Shown here in pieces: positions 18,448 through 61,300 of a stretch of 64,000 nt of DNA; position 1 is the stretch's first letter, and every line of letters starts with the position of its first letter. Made by a program: the position numbers and the translations under genes. The stretch comes from Deltaproteobacteria bacterium (GTDB lineage: Bacteria > Myxococcota_A > Polyangia > GCA-2747355 > JADLHG01). Below the pieces are notes generated by a model, which was given only the letters and a program-made list of their open reading frames with translations, did not search any database and was not told the DNA's origin. The DNA lies in the NCBI GenBank assembly GCA_020848905.1, contig JADLHG010000020.1, positions 8,230 to 72,229 of the forward strand. The letters are read 5' to 3'.

Positions 18448-18957
18448 CTACTTCTTCTTGGGGCAGGGGTGGCGACGCGCGGACTCCTGCTCGCACGCGG
18501 CGGACGCGTCGAAATCAGTCCGCACGCCCGTGTCCCAGTCGCAGTCCGACTTCGGGCAGACGAGGTCCGTCGTGACGAGCTCCTCCACGTCGGCGCAGCC
18601 GTTTCGGTTCGTGTCGCGGAAGCTGACCGTGCAGGTGGCAACGTGATTCGTCCAGGGGTGCGGGAAGGTGTCGCTGATCTTCGGCGCCCCGATCCCGAGC
18701 CAGCCAAGCCAGGCGAGGGGGTTGAAGCCCTGCGTGCTGCGCTCGCCGACCACGCCGCCCTTGGCGACGTAGGAGCGGCAGAGGGCGAGGGCCTCTCGAT
18801 TGTCGACGCTCGGGTCCGCGGTGCGAACCTGCGAGGCGCAGCTCTCGATGCTGCCCGGATTCGGGTCGCCTCCCTCGTCACCGCAGGCCGCGAGGGTCGA
18901 CGCCATGCCGGCGAGGAGGCAGACCGCGATGAAAGATACAGATCGGCTGACGCGCAT
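18448..18957 (-). CDS. small lipoprotein, tandem paralogue 1
   Basis: ORF 18448..18957. Lipobox STLAAC|G. It shares GDPNPGSIESCASQVRTADPSV...LCRSYVAKGGV.GERS.QGFNP.AWLGWLGIG.PK with the neighbouring gene. Conserved Cys pattern. Confidence 0.7.
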   Translation of the reverse strand: MRVSRSVSFIAVCLLAGMASTLAACGDEGGDPNPGSIESCASQVRTADPSVDNREALALCRSYVAKGGVVGERSTQGFNPLAWLGWLGIGAPKISDTFPHPWTNHVATCTVSFRDTNRNGCADVEELVTTDLVCPKSDCDWDTGVRTDFDASAACEQESARRHPCPKKK

Positions 18958-18983: not shown

Positions 18984-19502
18984 CTACTTCTTCGCGCAGC
19001 GGTAGAGCTCGGTGAACTTGTCGGTGCAGACCTCGACCGTCTCCGGAACCTTATCCATGTCGGGCTTGCCGTCCTTGAACCAGCTACAGGCCTGCGTGGG
19101 ACAGTCGACGACCGCGGACATGGCCTCCGGCGCGTCGTAGCAACCGTTGTTGTTCTTGTCGCGGAGCGTGACGGTGCAGGTCGCGGCCTCGGTGGTCGTC
19201 GGATACGAAAAGCTCTTCGTCACCTTCGGGGTGCCGATGCCGAGCCAGCCGAGCCAGGCGAACGGGTTGAAGCCCTGCGCGCTGCGCTCGCCGAGGACGC
19301 CGCCCTTCGCGACGTACGAGCGGCAGAGCTGGGCCGCCTCATCCGCTTCGACACTCGGGTCCGCGGTACGAACCTGCGAGGCGCAGCTCTCGATGCTGCC
19401 CGGATTCGGGTCTCCGACCTCGCTCCCGCACGCCGCGAGGGCCGGGAGGAGGCACGCGAACGTCGCGAGACGAACCCAACGCAAGGACGGCTTGGACGAC
19501 AT
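18984..19502 (-). CDS. small lipoprotein, tandem paralogue 2
   Basis: ORF 18984..19502. Lipobox PALAAC|G. The N-terminal half is near-identical to 18448..18957; the C-terminal half has diverged. Confidence 0.7.
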   Translation of the reverse strand: MSSKPSLRWVRLATFACLLPALAACGSEVGDPNPGSIESCASQVRTADPSVEADEAAQLCRSYVAKGGVLGERSAQGFNPFAWLGWLGIGTPKVTKSFSYPTTTEAATCTVTLRDKNNNGCYDAPEAMSAVVDCPTQACSWFKDGKPDMDKVPETVEVCTDKFTELYRCAKK

Positions 19503-24989: not shown

Positions 24990-26915
24990 CTAGAAGGTAC
25001 CGGTTACCCCCACCATCCCGCCCCCCGGTGCGGGGCCGAAGGCCAGGTTCAGGTTGAGGTCCGGGTCCTCGCGGTAGAGACGCAGCATGCGTTCCATGGG
25101 GGTCTCCATGTAGCGCAGCGAGACGCCGAGGCCGAAGAGGAGCGCGCTCATGGCTCCGCCCATGACGTAGATCGCGGCGGGGAGGTTGGTGCTCGACAAG
25201 CGGGCGTCCACGATGCCGATCGCCACGGTGGCACCGAGGAGCAGGCCCCCCTCGACGAAGGCCAGCGCGGAGACGAGGCGCCGGCGGCGGGCCTCGCGTT
25301 CGGCGAGCTCGAGGAGGTGCGCTTCGGTGCGGGCCACGACGGACTCGAAGCTCGCCCCGGGGCGTCGGAGCTCGTCTTCGAAGGCGGCGTAGGCCTTCTC
25401 CCCCTCCGAGCGCGCGAAGAGCCGCAGGAGGCCGGTGGCCGCGAGGGCGCCGCCCCCGCCGAGGAGCACGATCGCGGAGATCTTGGTCGTCTGGTCGAGC
25501 TCGCCGCTCTTCATGCCGAGGATCACGCCCCCCGAGGCGGCCACGACCAGGCCCCCGAGGGCGCTCGTGCCGGCGAGGGTCAGCCGGTCGGCGCGGTCGG
25601 CGCGGGCGAGCGCCGCCAGGTAGTGCCGCATGCGCACCTCGTCGCGCCAGGAGATGCCGAAGACCTCTTCGGCCGCCGGGTGCCGTCGTTCGCGCGCGTA
25701 GGCTTCGGGGCCGAAGGGCTCGGCGAAGAACTCCTCGTAGAGCGCGTCGTCCCCGCGGGCGAGGAGTGGCGTCGGGCGCGGGGTGAGCATCACCGAGGCG
25801 GTCGAGGTGGGCAGGCGGATCTCGCGCAGCGTGGGGCGCCCCCCTTTGCCGCGGGCCGCGACGAGCTCTTGCACGATGGCGCCCTCGGTCACGGGCATGG
25901 GCAAGACCAGCGTCAGCTCGCGCCCCCGCTCCTTGTGGACGTCGAGGAGGCGCGTCCCCTGGAGGTCCCGCACCCAGACCCGCTGCGCCGGCGGGCCGAG
26001 CACGAGCTTGCGCCCCACCGCGCGGTCCACGGCGAACAGCGAGGCGCCTCCGTTCTGGTAGGGCCCGCGTGCGAAGACCTTGGGGCGGAAGTGCTCGTTC
26101 TTGATGCGGCGATTCGCTATCGCCACGAAGGCCGCGAGCTCGTCGTACGAGACGCGCCCGTCGCCGTTCGCGTCCGCGGCGCCGGAGAGGCCCGAGCGCA
26201 CCTCGTGGCTGAAGATCCCCGACTGCAGCTCCGACCATTCGTAGACCTCGCCGGCCGCGCTCGTGGAGAGGAAGACCCCGACCTGCGGAAAGCGCTCCAC
26301 GAAGCCGAGCTTCAGGTCCTTCGGGGTGGCCCAGCGGCGGCCGCCGGCCTTGCGCGGGCTGATCACGAAGAAGGAGTTGCAGCTGTCGAGGATCAGGTGC
26401 GCGCGGTGGGCGGGGACCTTTCCCAGCACCTCCCGCTCCAGCTCCTCGGGCCCGAGCCGGCCGTCCTCGAGCTCGAGGTAGCCCTTGCCGCGGTCCACTT
26501 GCCCGTGGCCGGCGAAGACGAAGTAGAAGACCGTGTGCAGTCCCTTTGCACGGGCCGCGCGCACCGCGTCGGCGAGCTCGCGCACGGCCTGACGCAGCTC
26601 GGCGCGCCGAGGGGCCCGCGCGGTGGCCCCGAGCCCCGGATAGAGCGCGGCCGTGGGACGATCGAAGCGCGTGAGCAGGCGCAGGTGCCCGGGTTCGGTG
26701 ATGGTGCGGAAGACCTGCACGTAGCGCGCCCCGTCGTCGTCGGCGTACTGCAGGTTCGGTCGGTGCGGCAGGAGGCTCCGGTTGTTCGTCACCACGAGCG
26801 TGAAGCCGACCTCGGAGGCGGCTTCGACGGGCGACACACTGGCGAGGAGCAGGGCGGCCAGACCCGCCAGCACACCGAACGGTCTGGAACCCGTCGCGAG
26901 CCGACGCCTCCTCAT
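24990..26915 (-). CDS. exported caspase-family (peptidase C14-like) protein with Ca-binding-type loop and four C-terminal TM helices
   Basis: ATG at 26915 in ORF 24990..27422. Signal MRRRRLATGSRPFGVLAGLAALLLASVSPVEA|AS. Catalytic contexts YFVFAGHGQ (His137) and HLILDSCNS (Cys179). ADANGDGRVSYDELAAFV loop. Four hydrophobic helices near the C-terminus (for example LGGLVVAASGGVILGM and AIVLLGGGGALAATGLLRLF). The start overlaps the anti-sigma stop (ATGA). Confidence 0.75.
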   Translation of the reverse strand: MRRRRLATGSRPFGVLAGLAALLLASVSPVEAASEVGFTLVVTNNRSLLPHRPNLQYADDDGARYVQVFRTITEPGHLRLLTRFDRPTAALYPGLGATARAPRRAELRQAVRELADAVRAARAKGLHTVFYFVFAGHGQVDRGKGYLELEDGRLGPEELEREVLGKVPAHRAHLILDSCNSFFVISPRKAGGRRWATPKDLKLGFVERFPQVGVFLSTSAAGEVYEWSELQSGIFSHEVRSGLSGAADANGDGRVSYDELAAFVAIANRRIKNEHFRPKVFARGPYQNGGASLFAVDRAVGRKLVLGPPAQRVWVRDLQGTRLLDVHKERGRELTLVLPMPVTEGAIVQELVAARGKGGRPTLREIRLPTSTASVMLTPRPTPLLARGDDALYEEFFAEPFGPEAYARERRHPAAEEVFGISWRDEVRMRHYLAALARADRADRLTLAGTSALGGLVVAASGGVILGMKSGELDQTTKISAIVLLGGGGALAATGLLRLFARSEGEKAYAAFEDELRRPGASFESVVARTEAHLLELAEREARRRRLVSALAFVEGGLLLGATVAIGIVDARLSSTNLPAAIYVMGGAMSALLFGLGVSLRYMETPMERMLRLYREDPDLNLNLAFGPAPGGGMVGVTGTF

Positions 26916-27745
26916 CGCGCACCTCGCAGCGTCAGGGACCACTCCTGCACGTGCGCCTCGGGAAAGAGCCGCGCGAGCGAGGGGGCCTTCCCGGCGTCGC
27001 GCAGGAGCGCCTCCACCTGCTTCACCGAGCGGCGCTGCCGCGAGACGACCGAGACGGCGCGCAGGAGGCCGGGCTTCGCGTCGGGGGCGAAGACCTCGTG
27101 GAGCATCACGCGGCGCCCCCGCGGCAGGTCGAGCGCGAGCGGAGCCTTCGCCGGGTCGTCCCAGCGGGGGGCCGCCCAGTGCACCTCTCCCCCGGCCTCG
27201 ACGACGAAGACCAGCAGATAGAGCGGCGTGGGGGTGAGCCGGCTCACCTCGACCGCGAGACCCTCGTCGGCCGCGAGCAGATCGTGCGCGTTCAGGCGCC
27301 GGGGAGCGCCGTGCCGCTTTGCCGCGTAGAGCTCGACCCCCGTCAGCTCCTTCAGGCTCTCGGCCGTCGGACCGCCGCCGCGGGCCTGAAAGGTCTCCGC
27401 GCGACCGCCGGTGTGGCGCCACAGATAGACGCAGAGCGGAACGGTCACCGCGAGCACCGTGGCCGCGAGCGCGTAGGGGAGCCAGGAGGCGCGCGACGTC
27501 GCGGTGGGCGAGGGGTCGAGCCGGGCCATCGTGCGCGCCACGAAGGCCGCGGTGTCGGGCGAGGCGTCAGACGACACGCCTGGGGCCGGCGAGGCGATGG
27601 CCGCGAGCGTGACCTCGAGCCGAGAGGCGCGCGACCGGCACTCGCCGCATTCACCGAGGTGCGCCTCGAGGGCGCGAGCGCGCGCCACGGCCACCTGCTC
27701 CTCGCGCAGCGCAAGCAACTCGTCGTCGCTGGGGCAGCTCGTCAT
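26912..27745 (-). CDS. anti-sigma factor (zf-HC2 type), single-pass membrane protein
   Basis: ATG at 27745 in ORF 26912..28852. The N-terminus MTSCPSDDELLALREEQ...HLGECGECRSR has the H-x3-C-x2-C zinc motif. TM segment WLPYALAATVLAVTVPLCVYLW. Extracytoplasmic domain of ~170 aa. The start overlaps the sigma-factor stop (ATGA). Confidence 0.7.
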   Translation of the reverse strand: MTSCPSDDELLALREEQVAVARARALEAHLGECGECRSRASRLEVTLAAIASPAPGVSSDASPDTAAFVARTMARLDPSPTATSRASWLPYALAATVLAVTVPLCVYLWRHTGGRAETFQARGGGPTAESLKELTGVELYAAKRHGAPRRLNAHDLLAADEGLAVEVSRLTPTPLYLLVFVVEAGGEVHWAAPRWDDPAKAPLALDLPRGRRVMLHEVFAPDAKPGLLRAVSVVSRQRRSVKQVEALLRDAGKAPSLARLFPEAHVQEWSLTLRGAR

Positions 27746-28338
27746 GCGGAAACCTCCAGTCGGGCGCGTAGCGCGCGCAGACCCAAAAAGACGCGGGAGC
27801 GCACGGTGGCCTCGGGCGCGTCGACGATCGCTCCCACCTCGGCGTACGAGAGCCCTTCGCCGAAGCGCAGCAGCACGGCCTCGCGTAGCTTGGGGGAGAG
27901 ACCCCGGAGCTCGCGGTGCACACGTTCCGTGCGTTCGCGCCGGAGGAGCGCGTCGAGCTGCTCGGCGCGGTGCGACGGCTCGTTTGCCGCCGGGGCGTCC
28001 TGGAGCACGCGCTCGCGGCGAAAGAACCCGCGACGCGCGTTGCGGCAGACGTTGCGCACGATGGTGAAGAGGTACACGGCAAACTGCCCGTCCGGCCGAT
28101 AGCGCGCCCGGGCCTGCCAGAGCCGCAGAAACGCCTCCTGGGCCAGGTCCTCGCTGCGCGCGCCGTCCCACTTGGCGCAGAAGCTCCGCACCCGTCGCTC
28201 GTGTCGCGCGACGAGCGCGGCGAAGGCCTCGCGCAACCCGGCCGCCGCGAGCTCCATCAGCTCGTCGTCGGAGCGTGCCGCGAGCCCGCCCGGTTCGGGG
28301 CGCGGAAACGGCAGCACCTTGGGCTCGAAGCCGGGCAT
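27742..28338 (-). CDS. ECF (sigma-70 family, group 4) RNA polymerase sigma factor
   Basis: ORF 27742..28338. Region 2 (DLAQEAFLRLWQARARYRPDGQFAVYLFTIVRNVCRN) and region 4 (LSPKLREAVLLRFGEGLSYAEVGAIVDAPEATVRSRVFLGLRALR) are both recognisable. Confidence 0.9.
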   Translation of the reverse strand: MPGFEPKVLPFPRPEPGGLAARSDDELMELAAAGLREAFAALVARHERRVRSFCAKWDGARSEDLAQEAFLRLWQARARYRPDGQFAVYLFTIVRNVCRNARRGFFRRERVLQDAPAANEPSHRAEQLDALLRRERTERVHRELRGLSPKLREAVLLRFGEGLSYAEVGAIVDAPEATVRSRVFLGLRALRARLEVSA

Positions 28339-28392: not shown

Positions 28393-28611
28393 TCCTAGGC
28401 AGGCCGCCCCGCCGGGTGTCTCGCCGCCGCCCCGTAGCCCGCACGACCCCCCGGCGCCCCTCGCCCGTCCTGGCCAGCGGCCCAGCCAGCTCCCGCCCTG
28501 CGGGTCCTCCCACGAGCCCCGCGAACTGCCTATCCTTTTCACGCCCGCCGGCCGTCGTCGGTTGGTCCAGATGTTGCTGTCTCTTGTTTGCACAGGACGC
28601 TGGCCCCACCC

Positions 28612-30285
28612 ATGCCCCGACGGTACAGACTGTTCGTACGTCTCTCCGTGGCCCTCGCGCTGCTTCTGGCGGCCGCGGTGGGTCTCGAGCGACCCAGCGC
28701 CGCCGCGGGGCCAGGCGCGCTCGCGCGACGGTTCTTCGCGGGGCTCGCCAAAGGGCGGGTGAAAGGCTCGCGCGAGCCCGGCCTCGTGCTCGCGGCCAGC
28801 CCCAGCCAGCCGGTCGTGACGTCGCTCTTCGCCGTCGCGCGCAAGGTCGCACGTGGCGGGGCGCTCCATCCGGTCGGGATCGAGCCTTTCTCGAACGACG
28901 AGCTCAGCCTGCGCGTCCCGGCCGCTGTCCAGGGACGATCGATCGTGGTGGCGCAGCCCGCGGAGGCGCGCGAGCCCTCGACGGCGCTCTTCCGCACCCT
29001 GCTCGCGGTGGCGGCGAGCCAGAGCAACCTCGCCTCCTCGGTCCACGTGGTCCTCGATCGCGGCCTCGCGAAGCGCTTCGACCCGGCCTTCGTGGCCACG
29101 CTCTTCTCCGCGCTACACGCGGACTCGCTGCGCTACGCCGATGCGCACGGCGGCCCGCTCGAGCGACTTCTGCGCCCGCTCCGCGGTTCCGCCCTGGCCC
29201 AACGCTTGGGCGTCGACGGACCCCTCGTTCCTCGGCCGGTGCACCTGCCCCGCGAGGGACGCCGTTCCAAGCGCTCGGGCAGCGCCGCTCCGCCGCTGCT
29301 CTGGAGCGGTCACGGCTACCCCGAGCTGGCGCGGGGCGTGGGCGAGGCGATGGGGCTCGCGCCGCGCTTTCTGCCGACGGAGAAGGCCTTCCAGGGCCGC
29401 CAGATCCTCCCCGAGGACCCGGCCGGCCGACGCGTCTATCTCCTGCAGACCAAGCGCCTCGGCGATCCCGAGGCCCTGCACCGGGACCTCTTCGAGGTGC
29501 TCTACGCCGCCTGGCAGGCCAAGCAGCGCGGGGCCGCCGAGGTCACTCTCGTCATGCCCTATCTGCCCTACTCGCGCTCCGATCGCATGGATACCGCCGG
29601 CACCACCGTGGGCGCCGCGGTGCTACCGCAGCTCGCGCGCGCCGTCGGCGTGGACCGCGTGGCCTTCTACTCGGTGCATCAACCCCAAGAGGTCGGCTTC
29701 TTCCTCGGGCAGAAGATCCAGGTGCTGCACGCCTCGGGGGAGGCGGTCCTCGCCCCGGCGGTGGCGCGCCATCTGAAGGCCAAGCTCACGCCGAAGGAGC
29801 TCGCCAAGCACGTACGGGTGCTCGCGCCGGATCCGGGGGCACGCAAGCGCGCGCTGGTCTTCGCGCGCCTGCTCGCCGCCGAGCTCGGCCTGCCGGAGGT
29901 CAAGGTCGTCGTGGCCGAGAAGGAGCGGCACGGCCGCGACGTGAAGACCCGCTTCACCGCGAACGTGCGCAAGGCGGTGCTCGTAGCTATCGACGACGAG
30001 ACGGCGAGCGGCAAGACCCTCGCGCAGCTCGTCGAGCCGGCGCTCGCGAAGGGTGCGACCTCGATGCTCGCCGCGGTGAGCCACCTCACGGGGCCGGCCT
30101 ACCGCCTGCTCGACAGCTCGCGGCTCGAGCGGCTCTTCGCCCTCGACACCGTGCCGCAGCCGCGCGAGCACCACGACAACGCCAAGATCGAGATCGTGAG
30201 CGTGGCCCAGGCCGTGGGCCGGCTGCTCACCACCCTGGATGGGAGAGGGGACCTCTCGAAACAGCTCTTCTGGGAGCACGAATAA
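28612..30285 (+). CDS. ribose-phosphate pyrophosphokinase (PRPP synthetase)-like protein with signal peptide and an extra degenerate N-domain
   Basis: ATG at 28612 in ORF 28588..30285. Signal MPRRYRLFVRLSVALALLLAAAVGLERPSAAA|G. The C-terminal ~310 aa are Prs-like (VTLVMPYLPYSRSDR, VLAPDPGARKRA, LVAIDDETASGKTL). They are preceded by a degenerate copy of the Prs N-domain (VGIEPFSNDELSLRVPAAVQGRSIVVAQP...LFRTLLAVAASQS). Confidence 0.7.
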   Translation: MPRRYRLFVRLSVALALLLAAAVGLERPSAAAGPGALARRFFAGLAKGRVKGSREPGLVLAASPSQPVVTSLFAVARKVARGGALHPVGIEPFSNDELSLRVPAAVQGRSIVVAQPAEAREPSTALFRTLLAVAASQSNLASSVHVVLDRGLAKRFDPAFVATLFSALHADSLRYADAHGGPLERLLRPLRGSALAQRLGVDGPLVPRPVHLPREGRRSKRSGSAAPPLLWSGHGYPELARGVGEAMGLAPRFLPTEKAFQGRQILPEDPAGRRVYLLQTKRLGDPEALHRDLFEVLYAAWQAKQRGAAEVTLVMPYLPYSRSDRMDTAGTTVGAAVLPQLARAVGVDRVAFYSVHQPQEVGFFLGQKIQVLHASGEAVLAPAVARHLKAKLTPKELAKHVRVLAPDPGARKRALVFARLLAAELGLPEVKVVVAEKERHGRDVKTRFTANVRKAVLVAIDDETASGKTLAQLVEPALAKGATSMLAAVSHLTGPAYRLLDSSRLERLFALDTVPQPREHHDNAKIEIVSVAQAVGRLLTTLDGRGDLSKQLFWEHE

Positions 30286-30311: not shown

Positions 30312-31349
30312 ATGAGGGAGATGAGACGCACGCGCTGCACCACTTCGATCGTCGCCGGGTTGCTCGCCGCGACGCTCTTCGCCGCACTGCCCGCCGGCGC
30401 GACCAAGCGCACGGGCAAGCAACCCACCGACCGTATCCTTCTGCCGCGCGTGAGCTCGGAGCGGGCGGTGCGCGAGATCGGCCAGGCGATCGTGCGCAAG
30501 GTCCTCGCCATGGGCAAATCGGGGGTGGTCCTCGGGCTCTCGGGTGGCTCGGACTCCACCGTGGTCGCCGGCATCACCAAGCGCGCCTTCGACGCCTACA
30601 ACCGGCAGAACCCGGACAAGCCGCAGCTCGAGGTGGTGGGGATGATCCTCCCCTCGAAGACCAATACGGCGCAGGACACCGCGGACGGCGTCCTCGTGGC
30701 CAAGACGCTGGGCATCCGCTACGAGGTGGCGAGCATCGAGCCGCTCGTGCGCGCCTTCAAGAAGGTCAACCGCGCGGCCATGAAGAACTCCTTCACCAAG
30801 GGGAACACCATGTCCGAGCTTCGCGCCGTGGTGCTGCACACCAAGGCGGCCTCGGACACCGACGCGCAGGGACGTAACAAGTTCGTGATCGGGACCGGCA
30901 ACCGCGACGAGGACGTGGAGACGGGCTTCTACACCCTCTTCGGGGACGGGGCCGTGCACTTCAGCCCGATCGGCAACCTCTCCAAGCGGCACGTCTTCCA
31001 GCTCGCGCGGTGGTTCGGCTTCATGGACATCGCGCGCAAGGAGCCCTGGGCGGGCCTCGAGGCGGGGCAGACGGCCTTCAAGGCGCTCGGCTATCACTAC
31101 GCCCTCGCCGAGCTCGTGAACCGCGGCGTAGAGCAGGGCTTCACCGCCGAGGTCCTTGCGCGGCAGCCCCAGGTGCTGCGCCGGGCGGGCAAGGACCTGG
31201 GCGACTACCAGAGGCTCTTTGGCGCGCCGAAGTACGCGACGGTTCGCGAGCTCGTGGACGCCATCATCTGGCGCAAGGAGCATATCGCCAAGCCCAAGGG
31301 CGAGCTCGTTCGCCCCGAGGTGGCCGGCGTCACCCTGACCTATAGGTAG
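30312..31349 (+). CDS. nadE: NH3-dependent NAD+ synthetase with N-terminal signal peptide
   Basis: ATG at 30312 (or 30321) in the frame of ORF 28275..31349. MREMRRTRCTTSIVAGLLAATLFAALPAGA|T. PP-loop VVLGLSGGSDS. FVIGTGNRDEDVETGFYTLFGDGAVHFSPIGNLSKRHV is NadE-like. Confidence 0.8.
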   Translation: MREMRRTRCTTSIVAGLLAATLFAALPAGATKRTGKQPTDRILLPRVSSERAVREIGQAIVRKVLAMGKSGVVLGLSGGSDSTVVAGITKRAFDAYNRQNPDKPQLEVVGMILPSKTNTAQDTADGVLVAKTLGIRYEVASIEPLVRAFKKVNRAAMKNSFTKGNTMSELRAVVLHTKAASDTDAQGRNKFVIGTGNRDEDVETGFYTLFGDGAVHFSPIGNLSKRHVFQLARWFGFMDIARKEPWAGLEAGQTAFKALGYHYALAELVNRGVEQGFTAEVLARQPQVLRRAGKDLGDYQRLFGAPKYATVRELVDAIIWRKEHIAKPKGELVRPEVAGVTLTYR

Positions 31350-31358
31350 GATCGGACC

Positions 31359-32231
31359 GTGCGGCTCAGGCGTCTCACCCTCCTCGTCGCGCTGCTCCTT
31401 TGCAGCGGCTCGCCCGCCTGGGCCAAGCTCCCGGCGGGGGCCGACGCGACGGTGCTCGTCGAGGGGGACCCGCGTACGCGCTTTCGGGTGGCGGGCCTCG
31501 ACCTCGCCTCCGGGCTGAAGCCCGGCACGCGCATCGCCCTGCTCGGGGCCTCCGTAGATCCCATCTCGCTCGCGCATCTGGTCCTCGCCGCGCTGCCGCT
31601 CGTCGATCCGGCGGTGCGCGCCCAGCTCGGCGTGGACCAGGTCTGGATCGTTCCCTCGCCGCCGCGACCGGACAAGGCCCAGCGCGTGCCGAACGGCCGG
31701 CGCTTCGCCTGGACGCGGCTCGCCGCGCGCTACCTGCGCAAGAAAGGCCTTCCGGTCTACGCCACCGACGTGGAGCTGAGGCTCGCGAAAGGCGGCTTTC
31801 GTGGCACCTATCAGCTCCTGAAGGCCCTCGAGCGGCGCTTCCCCGGGGTCGAGCTGAGCGTGATCGTGGGCGAGGACGTCTGGAACGACCTGCCCACGAG
31901 CAAGTGGCGCAACGGCCTCGGTGTGGTGCGCGAGCATTCGCTCTTCGTGGCCCTGCGGGGCGATCACGCGGACCCGAAGAAGGCCAAGGCGCGCGTGGTG
32001 AAGGAGGCGCTCGAGCGGCAGGCCCGGCAGGTGATCCTGCTCCCCGACGCCCAGGAACCGGGTCTGCGCGAGCGACTGACCCGGCTCCTGCCGCGGGGCT
32101 TCGACCTCAAGCTGCTGCCGACCCTCAGCAGCACTGCCCTGCGTGAGGCCTTCGCCCGTGGGGAGCGCTCGCCCGTCGGCGTGCTCCCCGCCGTGGCGAG
32201 AGCCATCCTGCGCGCTGGCTCCTACCGCTAG
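31359..32231 (+). CDS. nadD: nicotinate-nucleotide adenylyltransferase-like protein with N-terminal signal peptide
   Basis: ORF 31359..32231 with a GTG start 9 nt after the nadE stop. MRLRRLTLLVALLLCSGSPAWA|K. IALLGASVDPISLAHL corresponds to GGSFDPxHxGH, with the first His replaced. LSSTALRE corresponds to the ISSTxIR motif. Confidence 0.65.
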   Translation: MRLRRLTLLVALLLCSGSPAWAKLPAGADATVLVEGDPRTRFRVAGLDLASGLKPGTRIALLGASVDPISLAHLVLAALPLVDPAVRAQLGVDQVWIVPSPPRPDKAQRVPNGRRFAWTRLAARYLRKKGLPVYATDVELRLAKGGFRGTYQLLKALERRFPGVELSVIVGEDVWNDLPTSKWRNGLGVVREHSLFVALRGDHADPKKAKARVVKEALERQARQVILLPDAQEPGLRERLTRLLPRGFDLKLLPTLSSTALREAFARGERSPVGVLPAVARAILRAGSYR

Positions 32232-32364
32232 TCTGGCCAGGGCGAGGGCCGCCCGGCACCGGCCCATCTGCTGGAAATCCATGGGCCCGAGGCCGCGCCG
32301 GAGCGGCACGGATCCTGCTGTCTATCGTGGGCAGCATCCGAACCGTGTCCTCGGGAGAAGGCCC

Positions 32365-33225
32365 ATGAAGGCTGCTCTGACCTCTGCATCGCTCTGGCTG
32401 GCCGCGCTCGCCGCGCTGCTGCCGTCGCCCGCCGTCGCGGCGCGCGAGCCGAAGCAGGGCTCGAACCGGGGCAAGCAGAGCTCGGTGGTCTCCATGCTCG
32501 GCGGCCGCTGTCCGACGAAGAACGGCGTCGTCGCGCTGCGCGAGCCGAAGCGCCACGGGAAGCGCGCGCTCCTCATCGTCGATCCCCAGAATGCCTTCAT
32601 GCCCGGGGGCGCCCTCGCCGTGAAGCACGGGGACCGCATCGTCCCGGTGGCGAACCGCCTGATGGGGCTCTTCGACCTGGTGGTGGTCTCGCTCGACTGG
32701 CACCCGGCGAACCACGGCAGCTTCGTCACCCAGCACCCCGGCAAGCAGGTCTTCGACGTGATCGATCTGCACGGCATCCAGCAGGTCCTCTGGCCCAAGC
32801 ACGCCCCGCGCGGTCGCAAAGGGTCGGACATCCACCCCGGGCTCGACCGGAAGCGCATCACGCACCTCGTGCTCAAGGGCAACGACAAGCGCGTGGACAG
32901 CTACAGCGCCTTCTACGACAACGGCCGGCGGAGCTCGACCGGGCTCGCCGCGTACCTGCGCTCGAAGGGGATCGAGGAGCTCTACGTGATGGGGCTCGCC
33001 ACCGACTACTGCGTGAAGTTCACCGTGCTCGACGCGGTGAAGGAAGGGTTCACCACGCACGTGATCAAGGCCGGCTGCCGCGGTGTGAATGCGCGGCGGG
33101 GCGACAGTGGGCGCGCGGTGAAGGCCATGAAGAAGGCCGGCGCGAAGATCCTCGGTGATGCGGCGCTCGAGGCCCTCCTCGGCGGCGCTCCGCAGGCCGC
33201 CCGAGGGAAGCGAGGTCAGCCGTGA
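32365..33225 (+). CDS. pncA: nicotinamidase (isochorismatase family) with N-terminal signal peptide and linker
   Basis: ATG at 32365 in ORF 32143..33225. MKAALTSASLWLAALAALLPSPAVAA|R. Catalytic and metal motifs ALLIVDPQNAF, SLDWHPANHGSF and MGLATDYCVKFT. Confidence 0.8.
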   Translation: MKAALTSASLWLAALAALLPSPAVAAREPKQGSNRGKQSSVVSMLGGRCPTKNGVVALREPKRHGKRALLIVDPQNAFMPGGALAVKHGDRIVPVANRLMGLFDLVVVSLDWHPANHGSFVTQHPGKQVFDVIDLHGIQQVLWPKHAPRGRKGSDIHPGLDRKRITHLVLKGNDKRVDSYSAFYDNGRRSSTGLAAYLRSKGIEELYVMGLATDYCVKFTVLDAVKEGFTTHVIKAGCRGVNARRGDSGRAVKAMKKAGAKILGDAALEALLGGAPQAARGKRGQP

Positions 33226-34841
33226 AGCGTACCGTTCGAAGCTCCCGCTTCTCCGTGCTCCTGGCCGCGCTCGCGCTCGTGCTCGCGCCCCTCGCTCCGG
33301 CGCAGGCGGCGCCCAAGCCCACGAACCCGACCACCGTGGGCCTCTACAAGAAGGGGGCGCTCGGGCTGCTCACCGACATGTACCAGCTCACCATGGGCTT
33401 CGGCTTCTGGAAGACGGGGCACGCCGACGACGAGGTGGTCTTCAACCTCTATTTCCGCAAGAACCCTTTCAAGGGGGGCTACGCCGTCGCCGCGGGTCTC
33501 GATACGGCGATCGATCTGGTGAAGAACTTCCGCATCACCGACAAGAACGTGGCCTACCTCTCCACGCTCAAGGGGAACGACGGCCGCCCGCTCTTCGACC
33601 GCGGCTACCTCCAGACCCTGCGCACCATGCGCTTCAACTGCGACATCGACGCTGTCCCCGAGGGGACGGTGGTCTTCCCGAACGAGCCGCTCCTGCGCAT
33701 CCGGGGCCCGCTCCTGCAGGTGCAGCTCCTCGAGACCGTGCTGCTCAACATCCTCAACTTCCAGACGCTGATCGCCACCAAGGCCTCGCGCGTCGTGCAG
33801 TCCGCCAAGGGGGACCCGGTCCTCGACTTCGGCCTGCGGCGCGCGCAGGGCTTCGACGGGTCGCTCTCCGCCTCGCGCGCCTGCTACCTCGCGGGCGCGG
33901 CCGGCACCTCGAACGTCGCCGCCGGCGAGCTCTTCGGCATCCCCGTCAAGGGCACGCACGCGCACAGCTGGGTCATGTTCCATCCGACCGAGGTGGAGGC
34001 CTTCGAGAACTACTCCCGCGTGATGCCCAATAACTCGGTCTTCCTGGTCGACACCTACGACACGCTGAACGGGGTGAAGAACGCGATCACCGTGGCCAAG
34101 CGCCTGCGCAAGCGCGGGCACGAGGCCCTCGGCATTCGCCTCGATTCGGGAGACCTCGCGAAGCTGAGCAAGAAGAGCCGCACCATGCTGGACGAGGCGG
34201 GCTTCCCGCAGGCCTTCGTCTCGGCCTCGAACGACCTCGACGAGCATGAGATCGCCGCGCTCAAGAAGCGCGGGGCGAAGGTCAACGTCTGGGGTGTGGG
34301 CACGAAGATGATCACCGCCTTCGACCAGCCCGCGCTCGGCGGCGTCTACAAGCTCGCCGCCGTGCGCCGCCCCGACGGCACCTGGGAGCGCAAGATCAAG
34401 CTCTCCGAGACGCCCGAGAAGACCTCCACCCCCGGCATCCTGCAGGTGCGCCGCTTCATGAAGGACGGCAAGTTCCTCGGCGACATGATCTGGGACCTCC
34501 TGAGCCCGCCCAAGGACCAGGGCCGGATGGTGAGCTACGCCGATGCGAGCCGCGTGACCCGCTTTGCCGGCGCCACGCACCAGGACCTGCTCGTCCCCGT
34601 CTTCCGGCGGGGCAAGAACGCCGCGCGCTTCGTGATGCGGCAGCTCCCGCTCGAGCAGGAGCGCGCCTACTGCCGCACGCAGCTCGAGGCGCTCCGCCCC
34701 GGGGTGAAGCGCCTGACCAAGCCGACCCCGTACAAGGTGGGCATGGAGCTCGGCCTGAATCAGGTGCGGCAGGAGCTCATGGCCAACGCGCGGTCCACGC
34801 AGGGTGCGAGCAGCCCGCGCACGCCGCGTCGCGTGAAGTAG
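33222..34841 (+). CDS. pncB: nicotinate phosphoribosyltransferase with N-terminal signal peptide
   Basis: ORF 33222..34841. The GTG start overlaps the pncA stop (GTGA). MKRTVRSSRFSVLLAALALVLAPLAPAQA|A. LLTDMYQLTMGFGFW and VKGTHAHSWVM are NAPRTase hallmarks. Confidence 0.85.
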   Translation: MKRTVRSSRFSVLLAALALVLAPLAPAQAAPKPTNPTTVGLYKKGALGLLTDMYQLTMGFGFWKTGHADDEVVFNLYFRKNPFKGGYAVAAGLDTAIDLVKNFRITDKNVAYLSTLKGNDGRPLFDRGYLQTLRTMRFNCDIDAVPEGTVVFPNEPLLRIRGPLLQVQLLETVLLNILNFQTLIATKASRVVQSAKGDPVLDFGLRRAQGFDGSLSASRACYLAGAAGTSNVAAGELFGIPVKGTHAHSWVMFHPTEVEAFENYSRVMPNNSVFLVDTYDTLNGVKNAITVAKRLRKRGHEALGIRLDSGDLAKLSKKSRTMLDEAGFPQAFVSASNDLDEHEIAALKKRGAKVNVWGVGTKMITAFDQPALGGVYKLAAVRRPDGTWERKIKLSETPEKTSTPGILQVRRFMKDGKFLGDMIWDLLSPPKDQGRMVSYADASRVTRFAGATHQDLLVPVFRRGKNAARFVMRQLPLEQERAYCRTQLEALRPGVKRLTKPTPYKVGMELGLNQVRQELMANARSTQGASSPRTPRRVK

Positions 34842-55302: not shown

Positions 55303-58300
55303 TCAACTGGCGCGTACCGTAGCAGGGGGGCCCTCGGCGGCGGAAGGGCCGAAGCGCACCTCGACGGTGTGGTCCCGGCGGTCGTCGGCGAGCGGGAGCA
55401 CGTTCCCCGCGAGCGTCGCGCCGTCGAGCGTCAGGGTCGGCGGACCGGCGTGCAGCGGGTCCTGCGTGAAGAGCAGGTGGTAGAAGGTCGCGTAGTAGCG
55501 GTAGTGCACCTTGAAGCTCGTCCACGCCGCCGGGACCCGCGGCTGGACGTGCAGCCGGTCGACCCGCCGCTCGAGGCCCAGGATGACCTCATGGAGCAGG
55601 CGATAGAACCAGGCGGCCGAGCCGGTGTACCAGGTCCAGCCGCCGCGACCGGCCCACGCCGGATGGCTGTAGACGTCAGCGGCGAGCACGTAGGGCTCGA
55701 CCTTGTAGCGGTCGACTCCCGCGGGGTCGAGCGCGTGGTTGATCGGGTTCAGGAGCGAGACGAGAGCCGCGGCTTGCTCGCTCCGTCCGGCGAGCGCGAA
55801 GGCGAGAGCGGCCCACACGGCCCCGTGCGTGTACTGCCCGCCGTTCTCGCGCACGCCCGCCGGATAGCCCTTGATGTAGCCCGGCTCCTGGGCGGAGCGT
55901 TCGAAGGGGGGCGCGAAGAGCTTCACGAGCGGCGGCTCCTGGCACACGAGCTCGGACCAGACCGCGTCGAGGGCCAGCCGGCGGCGCCCGGGCGCGCCCA
56001 CCTCCGCGATGGTGGCCCAGGCCTGCGGCAGCGCGTCGATGCGGCACTCCGCGCTCCCCGCCGAGCCGAGAGGTTCCCCATCGTCGAAGTAGGCCCGCCG
56101 GTACCACTCCCCATCCCAGGCGTGCGTCTCGAGCGCGGCCTCGAGCGCGCCGGCCGCTTCCCCGCAGCGCCGCGCGAAGGGCTCGTCCCCCCGCGCTGCC
56201 GCTAGCGTCGCGAACTGCGAGAGCACGTGGTGCAGGAAGAAGCCGAGCCAGACGCTCTCCCCCTTGCCCCGGTGGCCCACCCGGTTCATGCCGTCGTTCC
56301 AGTCGCCGCTCCCCATCAGGGGCAGGCCGTGCGCCCCCACGCGCAGGCCGTTGAGGAGCGCTCGCGCGCAATGCTCGTAGAGCGTCCCGCTCTGATCGGA
56401 GCGGCTCGGCAGATCGTAGTAGCTCTCCTCCCCGTCGGTGAGCTGTCGGCCCGCGAGGAAGGGCACCTGCTCGTCGAGCACCCCCGTGTCGCCGGTGAAG
56501 GCCACGTAGCGGCAGACGGCGTAGGGGAGCCACAGGTAGTCGTCCGAACAGCTCGTGCGGACGCCGCGCCCCTTCGGTGGGTGCCACCAGTGGTGCACGT
56601 CTCCCTCGACGAACTGCCGGGCCGCCGAACGCAAAAGGTGTTCCCGCGAGAGCTCGGGCGTCTGATGGAGCAGGGCCACGCAGTCCTGGAGCTGGTCGCG
56701 AAAGCCGTAGGCCCCGCCGGACTGATAGAAGCCGCTCCGGCCCCACATGCGGCAGGAGAGCACCTGGTAGGGGAGCCACCCGTTCAAGAGCACGTTGACC
56801 GCGGCGTCGGGGGTCTCAGCGTGCAGCACGCCGAGCTTGTCGTTCCAGTAGCGCCAGACCTCCTCGAGCGCCACGCGCGCGACGCGCCTGCCGCGGTGGC
56901 GCTGGACCAGCGCGACGGCCTCGGCGGCGCTCGGCGCGGCGCCCAGGATGAAGACGACCTCGCGCTCGGCCCCCTCGGGGAGCTCGAGCCGCGTCTGCAT
57001 CGCGGCGCACGGGTCGAGCCCCGGGCCGAGTCGCCCGCTCAGCCGCCGCAGCCGCAGCGCGGCCGGGCTCGACGGATCGCCGTTGCGTCCCAAGAACTCG
57101 GCGCGGTCGCCGCTCACGCTGCGGACCGTCTCGCTGCAGTCGAAGAAGGCGACGGTCTCGGGGAAGTCGCTGCTGTAGCTGTTGCGCGCCAGGATGGCGC
57201 CCGTGAGCGGATCGAGCTCGGTGATGACGTGCATGGCCTGCCGCGAACGCAGGTCCCCGAGGACGAGGTCCACCGCGGCGAAGACGCTGACGCTCCGGCT
57301 GCGGCCGCTCAGGTTCCGGATCTTGAGCGCCCAGAACTTCACCGGCGCCTCGATGGCCACGTAGGTCGTCAGCTCGGTCTGCAGCCCGTCGTGCTGGTGC
57401 TCGAAGACGCTGTAGCCGAAGCCGTGACGGCAGGCGTACGGGCCCTCGCCGGGCCTTGGTCCGGGCGTGGGACTGAAGGTCTGCCCCCCCTCGTCGTCGC
57501 GGAGGTAGATCGCCTCGCCGCTCGGGTCGCTGACCGCGTCGTTGCTCCAGGGGGTGAGGCGGTAGAGCTGCGAGTTGCCGTACCAGGTGTAGGCGCTGCC
57601 GCTCTCGCTGACCACCGTGCCGAGCTGCGCATTGGCGATGACGTTGACCCAGGGGGCGGGGGTCTGCCGGCCGGGCGGGAGGTCCACGATGTACTCGCGC
57701 CCGTCCTGCGTGAAGCCGCCCGTGCCGTTCGAGAAGATCAGGTCCCGCCGCACGGACCCCGAGGGCTCGGCCGGCGGAGGCGACGGGGCGGGGCGCGCGA
57801 GGGCCAGCATCGGGGGGCGCGACGTGAGAGACGCCTCCCTCCAGCGCTCGAGCTGCTGTTCGAGCGGTCCTTCGCCGTCGCGAATCACGATGCGGGCCAC
57901 GGCCTGCAGAAGCACGCGGTCCTCCTCGGGGAAGGTGTCGAGGTGCCGGACGAAGACGCCGCCCGGGCGGTCCACGAGCTGGGCCTCGGTCCCCGAGGCG
58001 ATGAGTCCCATGATCTGATCGTTCAGCACCCGCCGGTAGCCGGAGGCGTCCTCGTTCCAGATCACGAGGTCGGTGAGCAGGCCGCGCGTGCGCCAGTAGG
58101 CGTGCGCCCCGAGGAGCGTGCGCACGAGGTGGAGGTTCTCCGCGTCGCTCACGCGGAGCAGCACGATCGGGAGGTCGCCGGAGATCGTGTGGCCCCAGAG
58201 CCCCGATTGGCCCTTCCTGTTGCGCAGGAGAATGCTGCCGGGGGCCCGGTAGGCGCCCACCGGGAAGATCACGGCCGAGGCGAGCTGGGCGTACTGCAGA

Positions 58301-61300
58301 GCCTCACGTTCGCTGGCTCCGAGGTGCCCGAGCGCGGCGCGGCTGTGCGTTCCCGCGGCTTCGAAGACCCGGTCCGCCATGCGGTGGTCCTGGTACTTCA
58401 GGACGAGCGCCAGGGCCGCCTCGCGCGTCGCGGCCGCGCCGATCACCAGGTCGAGCTGGACCTTGCCGTCCACCGCGAGCTCCACGGCGCGACGGGCGGC
58501 GACGCACGGGTCGAGCAGCGCCCCGGCTTGTCCGGAGAGCGGGCCGAAGTCGTCGAGAAAGGCGGGTCGACGAAGGCTCCGGCCACGACCGATGGCGCGC
58601 ACGCGTTCCAGCTCGTAGCTGCACGGGCCCGCGTCGGCGGAGCGCGCCTGGAGCATGCAGAACATCCAGGGCGGGCGCTCCTCGGCGGAGCGCGGGCGCC
58701 GCGTCATCAGGAGGGCGCCGTGCTCGGGGACGAGCTCCGCGTGCACGAACAGGTTGCTGAAGGCGCGGTGAAGCTCGTCGGCCACGCCCGGAGCGAGCAC
58801 GACCTCCGCGTAGGCGGTGACCTGGAGCGCGCGCGGGGACGCCGAGCGGTTGGTCAGACGGAGGCGGCGGATTTCGAGGTCGTCCTCGGCGGAGACCGCG
58901 ATCTCGGTGTGCGTCTCGATCTGATCGTCCTGGCGGCGGAACTCGGCCCGCCCCGGCGTGAAGATCGCCTCGTAGTGTCGGCCGGCGTGGAGCAGCGGCT
59001 GATAGGCGCTGGACCAGCTCCGGTGCGTCGCCCGGTCGCCGACGAAGCAGAAGACGCCGAAGGTCTCCGAGGTGGGGTCCTCGCGCCAGCGCGTCACGGC
59101 CAGGTCGTTCCAGCGGCTGTAGCCGGCGCCGGCGGCCGAGACCATCACGTGGTAGCGACCGTTCGAGAGGAGCTGCACCTCGGGGATGGGGGTGTTCGGG
59201 TTTGTGAGCACGCGGTTCACCGTCTCCGGGCCTCTGCGGACCACGCGCCGCGACACCTGCGCCTCGCGGGCGTGCGGGTGGATCAGCGCGTGGACCTTGG
59301 GGATGCGCTCCTGCAGGAGGAGCGTAGCCGCCCGCAGCTCCGGGTTGCTCAGGAAGCGACGCTGCATCTCGGGGCCCAGCACCGCCTGGCCGAGCGCGAG
59401 CAAGCTCATGCCGTGGTGGTGGACCATGTAGGAGCGGACGAGCGTGCTCCTTTGCCCCTCGGGCACGCGCGTGGGCGTGAAGTCTACCGCCTCGTAGAAG
59501 CCGTACGCTCCCACGCACGCCTCGTCCGACAAGCGGCGCAGGTTGGCGCAGGCCCGCTCGGGGTCCACGAGGAGCGCCAGGGTCGAGGCGTACGGCGAGA
59601 TGACGAGGTCGTCGCCGAGCCCGCGCTGCAGGCCGAGGCCGGGGACGCCAAAGGCGCGGTACTGGTAGGTCCCCTCGACGTCGGTCAGGCCGAAGCAGGA
59701 CTCGGAGACGCCCCAGGGCACGCCGCGCTGGCGGCCGTAGGCGATCTGGTGGGCCACCGCCGCGGCGCAGGTCTCGTGCAGGAGCGTCCCCTCGTAGGCG
59801 GGCATCACGAGGAGCGGCATCAGGTACTCGAACATCGAGCCGCTCCAGCTCAGCAGCGCCTGCTTCCCGCGCGCGGTGGTCAGGCGGCGGCCTAGGGCGA
59901 ACCAGTGTTCGAAGGGGAGCTCGCCCGAGGCGATGGCCAGGTAGCTCGCGAGGCGGGCCTCCGACGCCAAGAGATCGTAGAAGCTCTTGTCCAGCCGGCG
60001 CTCGGTGACCCAGTAGCCGATGGCCAAGAGCTTGCGCTGCCGATCGAAGAGGAACGAGAACTCCGCGTCGGCCAGGCCCAGGCAGCGTTGCCCGAGCGTC
60101 TCGAGTTGCTGCAGGCGCGCGAAGACAGCCTCGGCGCCGAGGCGCAGGGCCTCGAGCAGCGCGGCACGTGGATTCTCGGGACGGACGGACCCCAGCGCGC
60201 CATCAGCCCCCAGCGTTTCGGCCGCCTGTTGCGCGAGGCGGCCGAGCGCTTCGAGGGTGGCGGCGCCGTCGAGCTCCGCGAGACACCGCGCCGTATCCGC
60301 GTCGCGCGGGTCGGGGGGGAGCGCGAGCCAGGGGGCCAGCTCGGTCAGGTCGGCCAGAAAGGCCCGCGCGTGCCGATCGAAGGCGCTGGCCCACCAGGAG
60401 GCCTCGGGGTGGCGCTGCCGATCGCACGACTCGGCGAGGCGCGCGGAGGCCGCGCTCAGCACTTCCAGCCAGCTCCGCGTGGCGGAGAGTCCGTGCGCGC
60501 GCGTCTCGAGGAGCCGCGAGCAGGTCGCGAACGCCTCGGGGTCGCAGCGCGCTTGCGGCTCGTCGCGCCCGCCGAGCTGCGCGGTCAGGACCCCGAACGT
60601 GTCGCGCAGGCCGTCGAGCGCCCTTGCGGGCAACGCCGGGGCCGTCGCGAGCTCGAGGAGCCCGCTGCGCAGCACGCGCACGTGCCCCACGAGGTTGCCG
60701 CTGTCGACGGAGGAGACGTAGAGCGGGGCGAGGGGCTTGCGCGTCTCCGTCTCGTACCAGTTGAAGAAGTGCCCCCGGTGACGCTCGAGCGTCTCCATCG
60801 ATTCGATGGAGCGGGCGGTGCGGTCGAGGAGCTGCCCGCCGCTCAGGTACCCGAGGTCGTGCGCCGCCAGGTTGGAGAGCAGCGAGAGGCCCAGGTCGGT
60901 GGGGCTGGTGCGATGCGCCACGCGCAGCCCGGGGAGCTCCTGGACGTTGTCCGGGGGGAGCCAGTTGTCGCGAGGGCCGACGAAGACCTCGAAGTAGCGC
61001 CAGGTGAGTCGGGCCACCTGCCGCAGAAAGCCCACCTCCTCGGCGGCGAGCCGGCTCGAGGGGGGTCGCACCGGCCGGCTGACCCACCATGCGATGAGGG
61101 GGGAGAGGAGCCAGAGCACGAGGACCAGACTCGCGGAGACGCCCGCTTTCGCAGGGGCCCTCGTGGCCAGGAAGGCCGCGGTGGCGATTGCCACGGCCGG
61201 TGCGACCCACATCCGCTGCAGCACCGGGCCGAAGCGCGACGCCGCTCCGCTCTCGGCGGCGGCGGCGGTCTGCCACTCGAGCAGGCGTTTGTGGCTGAAG

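Follow-up and report, generated by a model that had tools for sequence, protein, structure and literature searches.

A 64,000-nucleotide stretch of contig JADLHG010000020.1 from a Deltaproteobacteria bacterium (assembly GCA_020848905.1; about 71% G+C), referred to below as the window, carries a gene at 28612..30285 on the forward strand whose product is related to ribose-phosphate pyrophosphokinase (Prs). We propose that this protein is an exported, single-chain synthase of phosphoribosyl pyrophosphate (PRPP). A second Prs N domain, catalytically dead and fused ahead of a complete Prs, would supply in cis the FLAG motif missing from the catalytic module, and the PRPP would feed a co-exported nicotinate phosphoribosyltransferase (NAPRT), PncB. 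We put the probability of this reading at about one half.

The original prediction for this gene described a product of about 557 residues in one open reading frame (ORF), with a C-terminal part of the usual Prs layout preceded by a tandem, degenerate copy of the N domain that lacks the Y-x-R-x-D-R loop. The evidence set out below upholds these points, and the motifs quoted in their support are all present: VMPYLPYSRSDR (residues 314-325), VAIDDETASGKT (residues 458-469), LVLAASPSQPV, VGIEPFSNDELSLRVPAAVQGRSIVVAQP and STALFRTLLAVAASQSN. The reading frame is uninterrupted, and an alternative TTG start at 28588 would lengthen the product by 8 residues. The protein is 100% identical to a database entry (P0001) named 'MAG: ribose-phosphate pyrophosphokinase [Deltaproteobacteria bacterium]', where MAG stands for metagenome-assembled genome. 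The GC content by codon position has a coding signature throughout the gene, with a third-position value (GC3) of 0.92 in the pseudo-domain and a weaker, still present signal of 0.78 in the linker. Because of this signature, and because the single-ORF layout is kept in about 25 homologues, the gene is not two separate ORFs. Its features are as follows, the model-based scores being those of AlphaFold2 (AF2), for which pLDDT is the predicted local distance difference test.

28612..30285, forward strand: whole Prs-like ORF, 557 residues from ATG, comprising signal peptide (predicted), pseudo-Prs-N domain, linker and complete Prs.
28612..28710, forward strand: signal-peptide-like leader, residues 1-33, MPRRYRLFVR-LSVALALLLAAAVGL-ERPSAAA.
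28777..29154, forward strand: pseudo-Prs N-type domain, residues 56-181, with no PYxxYxRxDR loop; found by hhalign, Foldseek and a profile search of the PDB.
28888..28902, forward strand: FLAG-hairpin motif of the pseudo-domain, F93-S-N-D-E97, aligned to human PRPS2.
29155..29289, forward strand: linker, residues 182-226, of low pLDDT and probably disordered.
29290..29691, forward strand: true Prs N domain, residues 227-360 (Pfam PF13793, 62 bits), with a degenerate FLAG (KAFQGRQ) and H356 intact.
29557-29586, forward strand: regulatory flexible (RF) loop of the true N domain, PYLPYSRSDR, residues 316-325, intact.
29692..30285, forward strand: Prs C domain (type I phosphoribosyltransferase, PRT), residues 361-557, and the stop codon.
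Within the C domain: pyrophosphate (PP) loop APDPGARKRA, residues 405-414, and catalytic loop K437-E-R439.
29992-30018, forward strand: ribose-5-phosphate (R5P) loop of the C domain, DDETASGKT, residues 461-469.

The relationship between the two halves is remote. BLASTP of residues 34-230 against residues 231-557 gave no significant similarity, and profile and fold methods were therefore needed. Comparison of the extra domain with the true N domain using hhalign gave a probability of 90.6% (E 1.3e-6) with profiles of ten family sequences, and 96.5% (E 7.7e-10) with 25. The alignment is in register over 82-88 columns, with a deletion of about ten residues falling exactly at PYLPYSRSDRMD of the true domain, which is its PYxxYxRxDR loop. 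When residues 55-190 were modelled alone with AF2, the result had a pLDDT of 82 and a predicted template modelling score (pTM) of 0.78, and its elements run in the order β-α-hairpin-β-α-β-α-β, as in the Prs N domain. A Foldseek search of the PDB with this model returned Prs or PRPSAP structures for all of the top 50 matches (best E 3e-5, TM 0.61-0.68, about 22% identity). A hidden Markov model of the extra domain likewise matched 26 PDB sequences, all of them Prs or PRPSAP (best E 8e-4), and was aligned to Prs residues 29-89.

The same profile was run against 1.84e9 representative sequences. The strong matches were family members, and those between E 1e-5 and 1e-3 include Prs proteins of normal length (about 310-330 residues), matched at their N domains; six of the weaker matches were verified as canonical Prs by Pfam. 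The Pfam model Pribosyltran_N itself matches two stretches of the Prs-like protein. On the combined weight of profiles and models, the extra domain is judged to be a degenerate copy of the Prs N domain, and a catalytically dead one because it has no PYxxYxRxDR loop.

Residues 227-557 correspond to a full-length Prs. The best phmmer match is to residues 2-291 of Thermus thermophilus Prs II (PDB 7pn0), at E 3e-24; this protein (7pn0/5t3o) is the closest canonical Prs of solved structure. The TIGR01251 model (cut-off 113 bits) is matched at 130.7 bits, and the equivalog-level models all score far below their cut-offs. Both of the tandem PRT-type domains, N and C, are present with the Prs fold. 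In a family alignment (A1) the residues P316, Y317, Y320, R322, D324, R325, H356, P406, D407 and G409 are invariant, as are K437, R439, D461, D462, G467 and T469. These residues are kept in all or nearly all sequences of a 25-member family alignment. In all or nearly all members the catalytic module has PYLPY(S/A)RSD(R/K), which is the RF loop, H-x-(P/A)-Q, (A/S)PD-G (the PP loop), K-x-R (the catalytic loop), DDETA(S/T)G-T (the R5P loop) and (S/T)HL.

The FLAG region is another matter. The canonical sequence F35-S-N/D-x-E39 is variable in the catalytic module of the Myxococcota members, and in Bdellovibrionota the region is shortened and unrecognisable; in the window copy the FLAG hairpin expected of a Prs is replaced in the catalytic N domain by KAFQGRQ. 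The pattern is reversed in the pseudo-domain. Here the RF loop is lost and the FLAG is the best conserved motif, occurring as F-x-N-(D/G)-(E/N)-x-x-V in nearly all 25 members, and a profile search aligns F93-S-N-D-E97 of the window protein to F35-S-N-Q-E39 of human PRPS2. In the nearest relative with a single module (P0011, 340 residues), F-D-L-G-E stands at the expected N-terminal position, with the register judged by eye and not from an alignment. To judge from these motifs, the catalytic module keeps its RF, PP, catalytic and R5P loops without a FLAG of its own, and all that the dead domain retains is the core fold with its FLAG.

Prs is an obligate oligomer, with an ATP site that is shared between subunits. 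A recent survey of PRPS describes the division of labour in class I enzymes: ATP is bound in a dimeric pocket, in which E39 of the FLAG of one subunit contacts the adenine N6 and R96 of the RF loop of the adjacent subunit contacts N1 (bioRxiv 10.64898/2026.06.01.728777). Since the FLAG acts in trans in canonical Prs, the two halves of the window protein have lost complementary parts of a two-subunit site.

The full-length AF2 model gives indirect evidence on domain packing. Its pTM is 0.78 despite about 100 disordered residues, which suggests confidence in the relative placement of the three folded domains. The pseudo-domain has a pLDDT of 84-93 within this model; residues 182-223 of the linker are below 50, and the linker differs in length and sequence among homologues. 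On the basis of the motif complementarity and the pTM, we hypothesise that the dead domain docks on the catalytic N domain in the manner of the partner subunit in a bent dimer. The docked domain would donate its FLAG in cis, giving one complete active site per chain, and no assembly of a homo-oligomer would be needed after export. The enzyme would then convert ribose-5-phosphate and ATP to PRPP for the co-exported PncB, as part of a Preiss-Handler pathway that would run outside the cytoplasm of the producer, whether in its periplasm, inside vesicles or within prey. The earlier suggestion that a pseudo-domain fused in cis could replace an inter-subunit contact of Prs is thus favoured by the reciprocal pattern of FLAG and RF loop, from which we infer it. 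Compared with a canonical Prs, the window protein has an added pseudo-N domain and signal peptide and a degenerate FLAG in its catalytic module, and it probably does not form a homohexamer from bent dimers.

The extra domain could instead be a regulatory or assembly module, acting in oligomerisation, in allostery or in binding a nucleotide ligand, with the catalytic module pairing with another chain. It would then resemble a cis-fused version of PRPSAP1/2 (PAP39/PAP41; PDB 2c4k, 2ji4), which are paralogues of Prs that have no catalytic activity and are found in association with the active enzyme. By sequence, the pseudo-domain profile matches PRPSAP2 (2ji4) best in the PDB, at E 8e-4, and PRPSAP2 is also among the Foldseek matches, and Myxococcota members of the family have a tail of the S-x-x-L-F type seen in class I allosteric sites (LSKQLFWEH). 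PRPSAPs are, however, full-length and separate eukaryotic polypeptides, whereas here an N-type half-domain is fused in cis in a bacterial protein that has an export leader; the pseudo-domain has the N-type fold without an RF loop, and its association with the catalytic module is suggested by the pTM. More seriously, a regulatory role leaves unexplained why no other motif of the dead domain should be as well conserved as the FLAG, and why, in members of both phyla, the FLAG should be the one functional region that the catalytic module has lost. We regard it as the strongest of the alternatives to FLAG donation in cis, though a rather unlikely one.

The second part of the proposal concerns export. 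The leader of the Prs-like protein has a basic n-region, an uncharged h-region of 15 residues and a c-region of the AxA type, from which the protein is predicted to be exported by the Sec or Tat route. It is the first of a set of five genes on the same strand, the others being:

30312..31349, forward strand: NadE-like NAD synthetase (PF02540, 145 bits; TIGR00552, 132 bits), with an SGGSDS P-loop and a leader of GC3 0.87.
31359..32231, forward strand: divergent NadD-like adenylyltransferase, with a leader ending AWA-K (GC3 0.92); the best NCBIfam NadD score is 52 bits, below cut-off.
32365..33225, forward strand: PncA nicotinamidase (NF008623, 249 bits against a cut-off of 174, matched from residue 66).
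33222..34841, forward strand: PncB nicotinate phosphoribosyltransferase (NF006695, 564 bits against a cut-off of 469).

The NadE-like gene follows the Prs-like gene after 26 nt and the NadD-like gene follows after a further 9 nt; PncA is preceded by a gap of 133 nt, and PncB overlaps the PncA stop by 4 nt. PncA, PncB, NadD and NadE, together with Prs, make up the Preiss-Handler route, which leads from nicotinamide, ribose-5-phosphate and ATP to NAD, and in which NAPRT is the user of PRPP. The set of enzymes and the pathway logic are therefore those of the known Preiss-Handler operons (pncA-pncB-nadD-nadE), with strong matches for PncA, PncB and NadE. The differences are the dedicated Prs, the highly divergent NadD-like member, in which the HxGH motif reads S-L-A-H and an ISST-type motif (LSSTALR) is retained, and the signal-peptide-like leaders of all five proteins. 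The only NadD-like homologue found in 5.8e9 proteins was the protein itself.

In each of the five proteins the homologous catalytic domain is preceded by an N-terminal extension of 30-60 residues. That of PncA is about 60 residues, with a signal-peptide-like leader of GC3 0.92, and PncB has a leader of 52 residues (…APLAPAQA-APK). The small-x-small sites of these extensions include AGA-T, AWA-K, VAA-R and AQA-A. A crude signal-peptide rule was applied, demanding a basic n-region, an uncharged h-region of at least 10 residues and a small-x-small c-region. All five operon proteins pass it, and it fires at 1.2-2.4% of the candidate starts in the window.

The family is small. Ten proteins of the long architecture were found among 5.8 billion, and a scan in which each GTDB species was represented by one genome gave 16 loci. 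Altogether there are about 25 relatives with the same architecture, all from MAGs of Myxococcota (Polyangia, Myxococcales and "Deltaproteobacteria") and Bdellovibrionota (Bdellovibrio, Bdellovibrionales, Pseudobdellovibrionaceae and Oligoflexia). Both phyla include known predators. Complete ORFs are about 470-560 residues long, and in each copy with an intact N-terminus a signal-peptide-like leader comes first and the pseudo-domain next. A twin-arginine RR is present in many of the Myxococcota leaders and not in those of Bdellovibrionota.

The neighbourhoods of the homologues differ from that in the window. A tblastn search of 21 loci found no NAD-salvage genes near the homologues, from which it follows that the NAD operon is peculiar to this MAG. 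Elsewhere, in Myxococcota and Bdellovibrionota alike, the gene lies within clusters of genes for signal-peptide proteins. The most constant neighbour, usually adjacent, is one or two secreted proteins of the LOG/SLOG family (PF18306/PF03641), 450-750 residues long, and the Bdellovibrionota copies have the LOG signature PGGxGTxxE. As a family, LOG enzymes cleave nucleoside 5'-monophosphates to base and ribose-5-phosphate, which is the substrate of Prs. These neighbours suggest an exported route from nucleoside monophosphate through ribose-5-phosphate to PRPP. Also recurrent are an alpha/beta hydrolase, phosphatases of the protein tyrosine phosphatase (PTP) type, kinase-like proteins and an unplaced secreted family. 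The last is often present in several copies, occurs in both phyla and has the motifs Y-P-x..LGR(S/D), ..AS.. and hhhhD..S.G. It was considered as a PRT-like user of PRPP, and this idea was rejected: it has no Pfam match and no meaningful PDB match, and hhalign against the Prs domains gave a probability of about 1%. The Myxococcota clusters also encode PI3/PI4-kinase-like, Ser/Thr-kinase, PTP-type phosphatase, trehalose-phosphatase-like and alpha/beta-hydrolase proteins; among the cluster neighbours whose N-termini were examined, most have signal-peptide-like leaders, and as a set they resemble an effector arsenal. The positions within the homologous loci (L numbers) are:

LOG/SLOG neighbours: L001 8302-9954; L002 3480-4853; L011 2525-4762; L012 4640-8422; L014 8670-10805; L018 10406-12154; and others.
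Unplaced secreted family: L001 6171-7079; L002 5068-6066; L003 8807-9838; L009 10750-14765; L014 10819-11898; L015 10662-12290; L018 12151-13719.
Kinase, phosphatase and hydrolase neighbours in Myxococcota: L001 1738-3195; L002 1-2044; L003 6972-8800 and 14137-15180.

The theme shared by these loci and the window is an apparently exported Prs whose neighbours, apparently exported as well, are enzymes that either provide its substrate or consume its product.

This context can also be read in a less benign way. The Prs-like protein might be a secreted effector or toxin that acts in prey by burning ATP and ribose-5-phosphate, draining nucleotides together with the LOG-type nucleosidases, with PRPP as a by-product. 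The confinement of the family to MAGs of Myxococcota and Bdellovibrionota would suit such a role, as would the signal peptides on all intact N-termini and the secreted-protein clusters of other genomes, with their LOG/SLOG, alpha/beta hydrolase, phosphatase, kinase-like and unplaced families. However, a complete and ordered NAD salvage set in the same operon, including a PncB that needs PRPP, fits supply better than depletion, and neither an immunity gene nor a recognised delivery domain is present. An effector function is in our opinion improbable.

A more mundane explanation is that the leaders are artefacts of start-codon choice, or uncleaved anchors, and that the five enzymes are products of an ordinary, though unusually arranged, NAD-salvage operon and act in or at the cytoplasm. 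In its favour, an NCBI start at M53 makes PncB a normal protein of 487 residues, and the closest relatives of PncB (60% identity, about 490 residues) have no leader; the leader of the Prs-like protein, with a GC3 of 0.79-0.82, also has a weaker coding signal than the remainder of its gene. Against it, the leaders of the other four proteins look coding, with a GC3 of 0.87-0.92 and a GC2 (second codon position) of 0.54-0.62. By comparison, the intergenic stretch 32143-32364 has codon-position values of 0.65/0.77/0.77 and a non-coding look. The PncB leader is considered to be translated because its values (0.71/0.54/0.92) are coding-like. All five proteins pass a rule that fires at 1.2-2.4% of candidate starts, the starts that include the leaders give a tight operon spacing, the leader of the Prs-like protein is conserved across two phyla, and the basic residues ahead of the h-region predict that the C-terminus is outside. 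For these reasons a cytoplasmic location is considered very unlikely.

The original prediction also warned that the substrate might be different, citing the ADP-ribose pyrophosphokinases (Adps) of phage NAD-reconstitution pathways. There is a likeness, in that Adps is a Prs homologue genetically coupled to a phosphoribosyltransferase that rebuilds NAD (the NARP1 pathway), its partner being a member of the nicotinamide phosphoribosyltransferase family (bioRxiv 10.1101/2024.02.11.579819), and the window likewise has a Prs homologue and a NAPRT in one operon. There are also differences. By the BLASTP scores given below, Adps represents a different clade; it belongs to phages, is 266 residues long in phage 4MG, lacks the extra domain and the signal peptide, and has a Nampt-type partner, Namat; in phage 4MG the Nampt gene lies two genes downstream of the gene for the Adps-type protein. 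Near the Prs-like gene there is neither a Namat (Nampt-family) gene nor a phage or mobile-element context, the neighbour being the NAPRT-type PncB, and a search of phages gave only distant matches of at most 28% identity. A shortcut of the NARP1 kind, in which PncB would join nicotinate to ADP-ribose pyrophosphate (ADPR-PP) and NadE would finish NAD, would account for the degenerate HxGH motif of the NadD-like protein, but we consider it the least likely reading of all, given that the catalytic module matches Thermus Prs at 103 bits (BLASTP, 33% over 300 residues) against 61.6 bits for the Adps-type protein of phage 4MG (27% over 183 residues) and that PncB is above the NAPRT equivalog cut-off.

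To return to the exported, single-chain PRPP synthase, several observations weigh against it. The FLAG loss is less complete in the window copy than in its relatives, since the true N domain retains the F of KAFQGRQ. Docking in cis in a pose like that of the bent dimer is drawn from motifs and pTM. The signal peptides were called by a home-made rule rather than SignalP, and the NCBI start of PncB at M53 trims its leader. The NadD-like protein, with its degenerate S-L-A-H, may be inactive or altered in function, and the NAD-salvage context is found in this one MAG only. Finally, an extracytoplasmic pathway is physiologically puzzling, because three of its steps need ATP, a compound generally considered to be absent from the periplasm. 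If the pathway is indeed exported, this need would place its site of action where ATP is available, such as the prey cytoplasm, the bdelloplast, vesicles or lysate.

We offer a wider hypothesis only tentatively, and consider it more doubtful than the proposal for the window protein itself. Bacteria of two phyla that contain predators may secrete a PRPP synthase that is self-sufficient as a single chain, accompanied by enzymes linked to PRPP (those of NAD salvage here, LOG-type nucleosidases elsewhere), and so run ATP-dependent nucleotide and cofactor chemistry outside the cytoplasm, in prey, the bdelloplast or vesicles. The fused dead N domain would then be an adaptation that makes the enzyme independent of the hexamer.

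A literature search on exported or periplasmic Prs, three-domain Prs, signal peptides in NAD salvage, LOG in Bdellovibrio and the pairing of Prs with LOG found nothing relevant, within an incomplete coverage of the literature. A survey of 35,000 PRPS sequences makes no mention of Bdellovibrio, Myxococcota, signal peptides, tandem domains or N-terminal extensions.

Upstream of the operon, on the opposite strand, are the following genes:

27742..28338, reverse strand: sigma factor of the extracytoplasmic function (ECF) type, divergent to the operon, with Sigma70_r2 and r4_2 matches.
About 26912-27745, reverse strand: probable anti-sigma ORF, zf-HC2-like and with one transmembrane helix, read from the sequence and with no Pfam match.

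The region 24990-28338 on the reverse strand also encodes a large secreted protein of about 640-810 residues, whose sole match is EF-hand-like. These divergent sigma and anti-sigma genes and the large secreted protein may regulate the operon. An ECF-type promoter was sought in the 273-bp intergenic region, where a GAAC...CGTC pair can be seen by eye; its spacing (about 26 nt) is wrong, and a promoter is not claimed. An Rfam scan of the whole window found no riboswitch or other RNA family.

Two further features of the window lie away from the operon. At 18448-18957 and 18984-19502, both on the reverse strand, are tandem paralogous genes for small lipoprotein-like proteins with nearly identical stretches (…GDPNPGSIESCASQVRTADPSV…). 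An ORF of 2890 residues occupies 55303-63975 on the reverse strand, with a strong coding GC3 of 0.93.

The Prs-like family may be of interest for several reasons. A natural single-chain Prs would show how the ATP interface between subunits can be internalised, and a half-subunit reduced to a FLAG donor would allow the contribution of the FLAG to be studied cleanly. Current annotation pipelines overlook what is seen here: the protein is labelled simply as a ribose-phosphate pyrophosphokinase, and the leader of PncB is trimmed. An exported Prs with a Preiss-Handler set would contradict the view that biosynthesis dependent on ATP and PRPP is strictly cytoplasmic. The restriction of the family to phyla that contain predators suggests a so far unnoticed class of secreted metabolic enzymes, which would act on nucleotides and niacin derived from prey.

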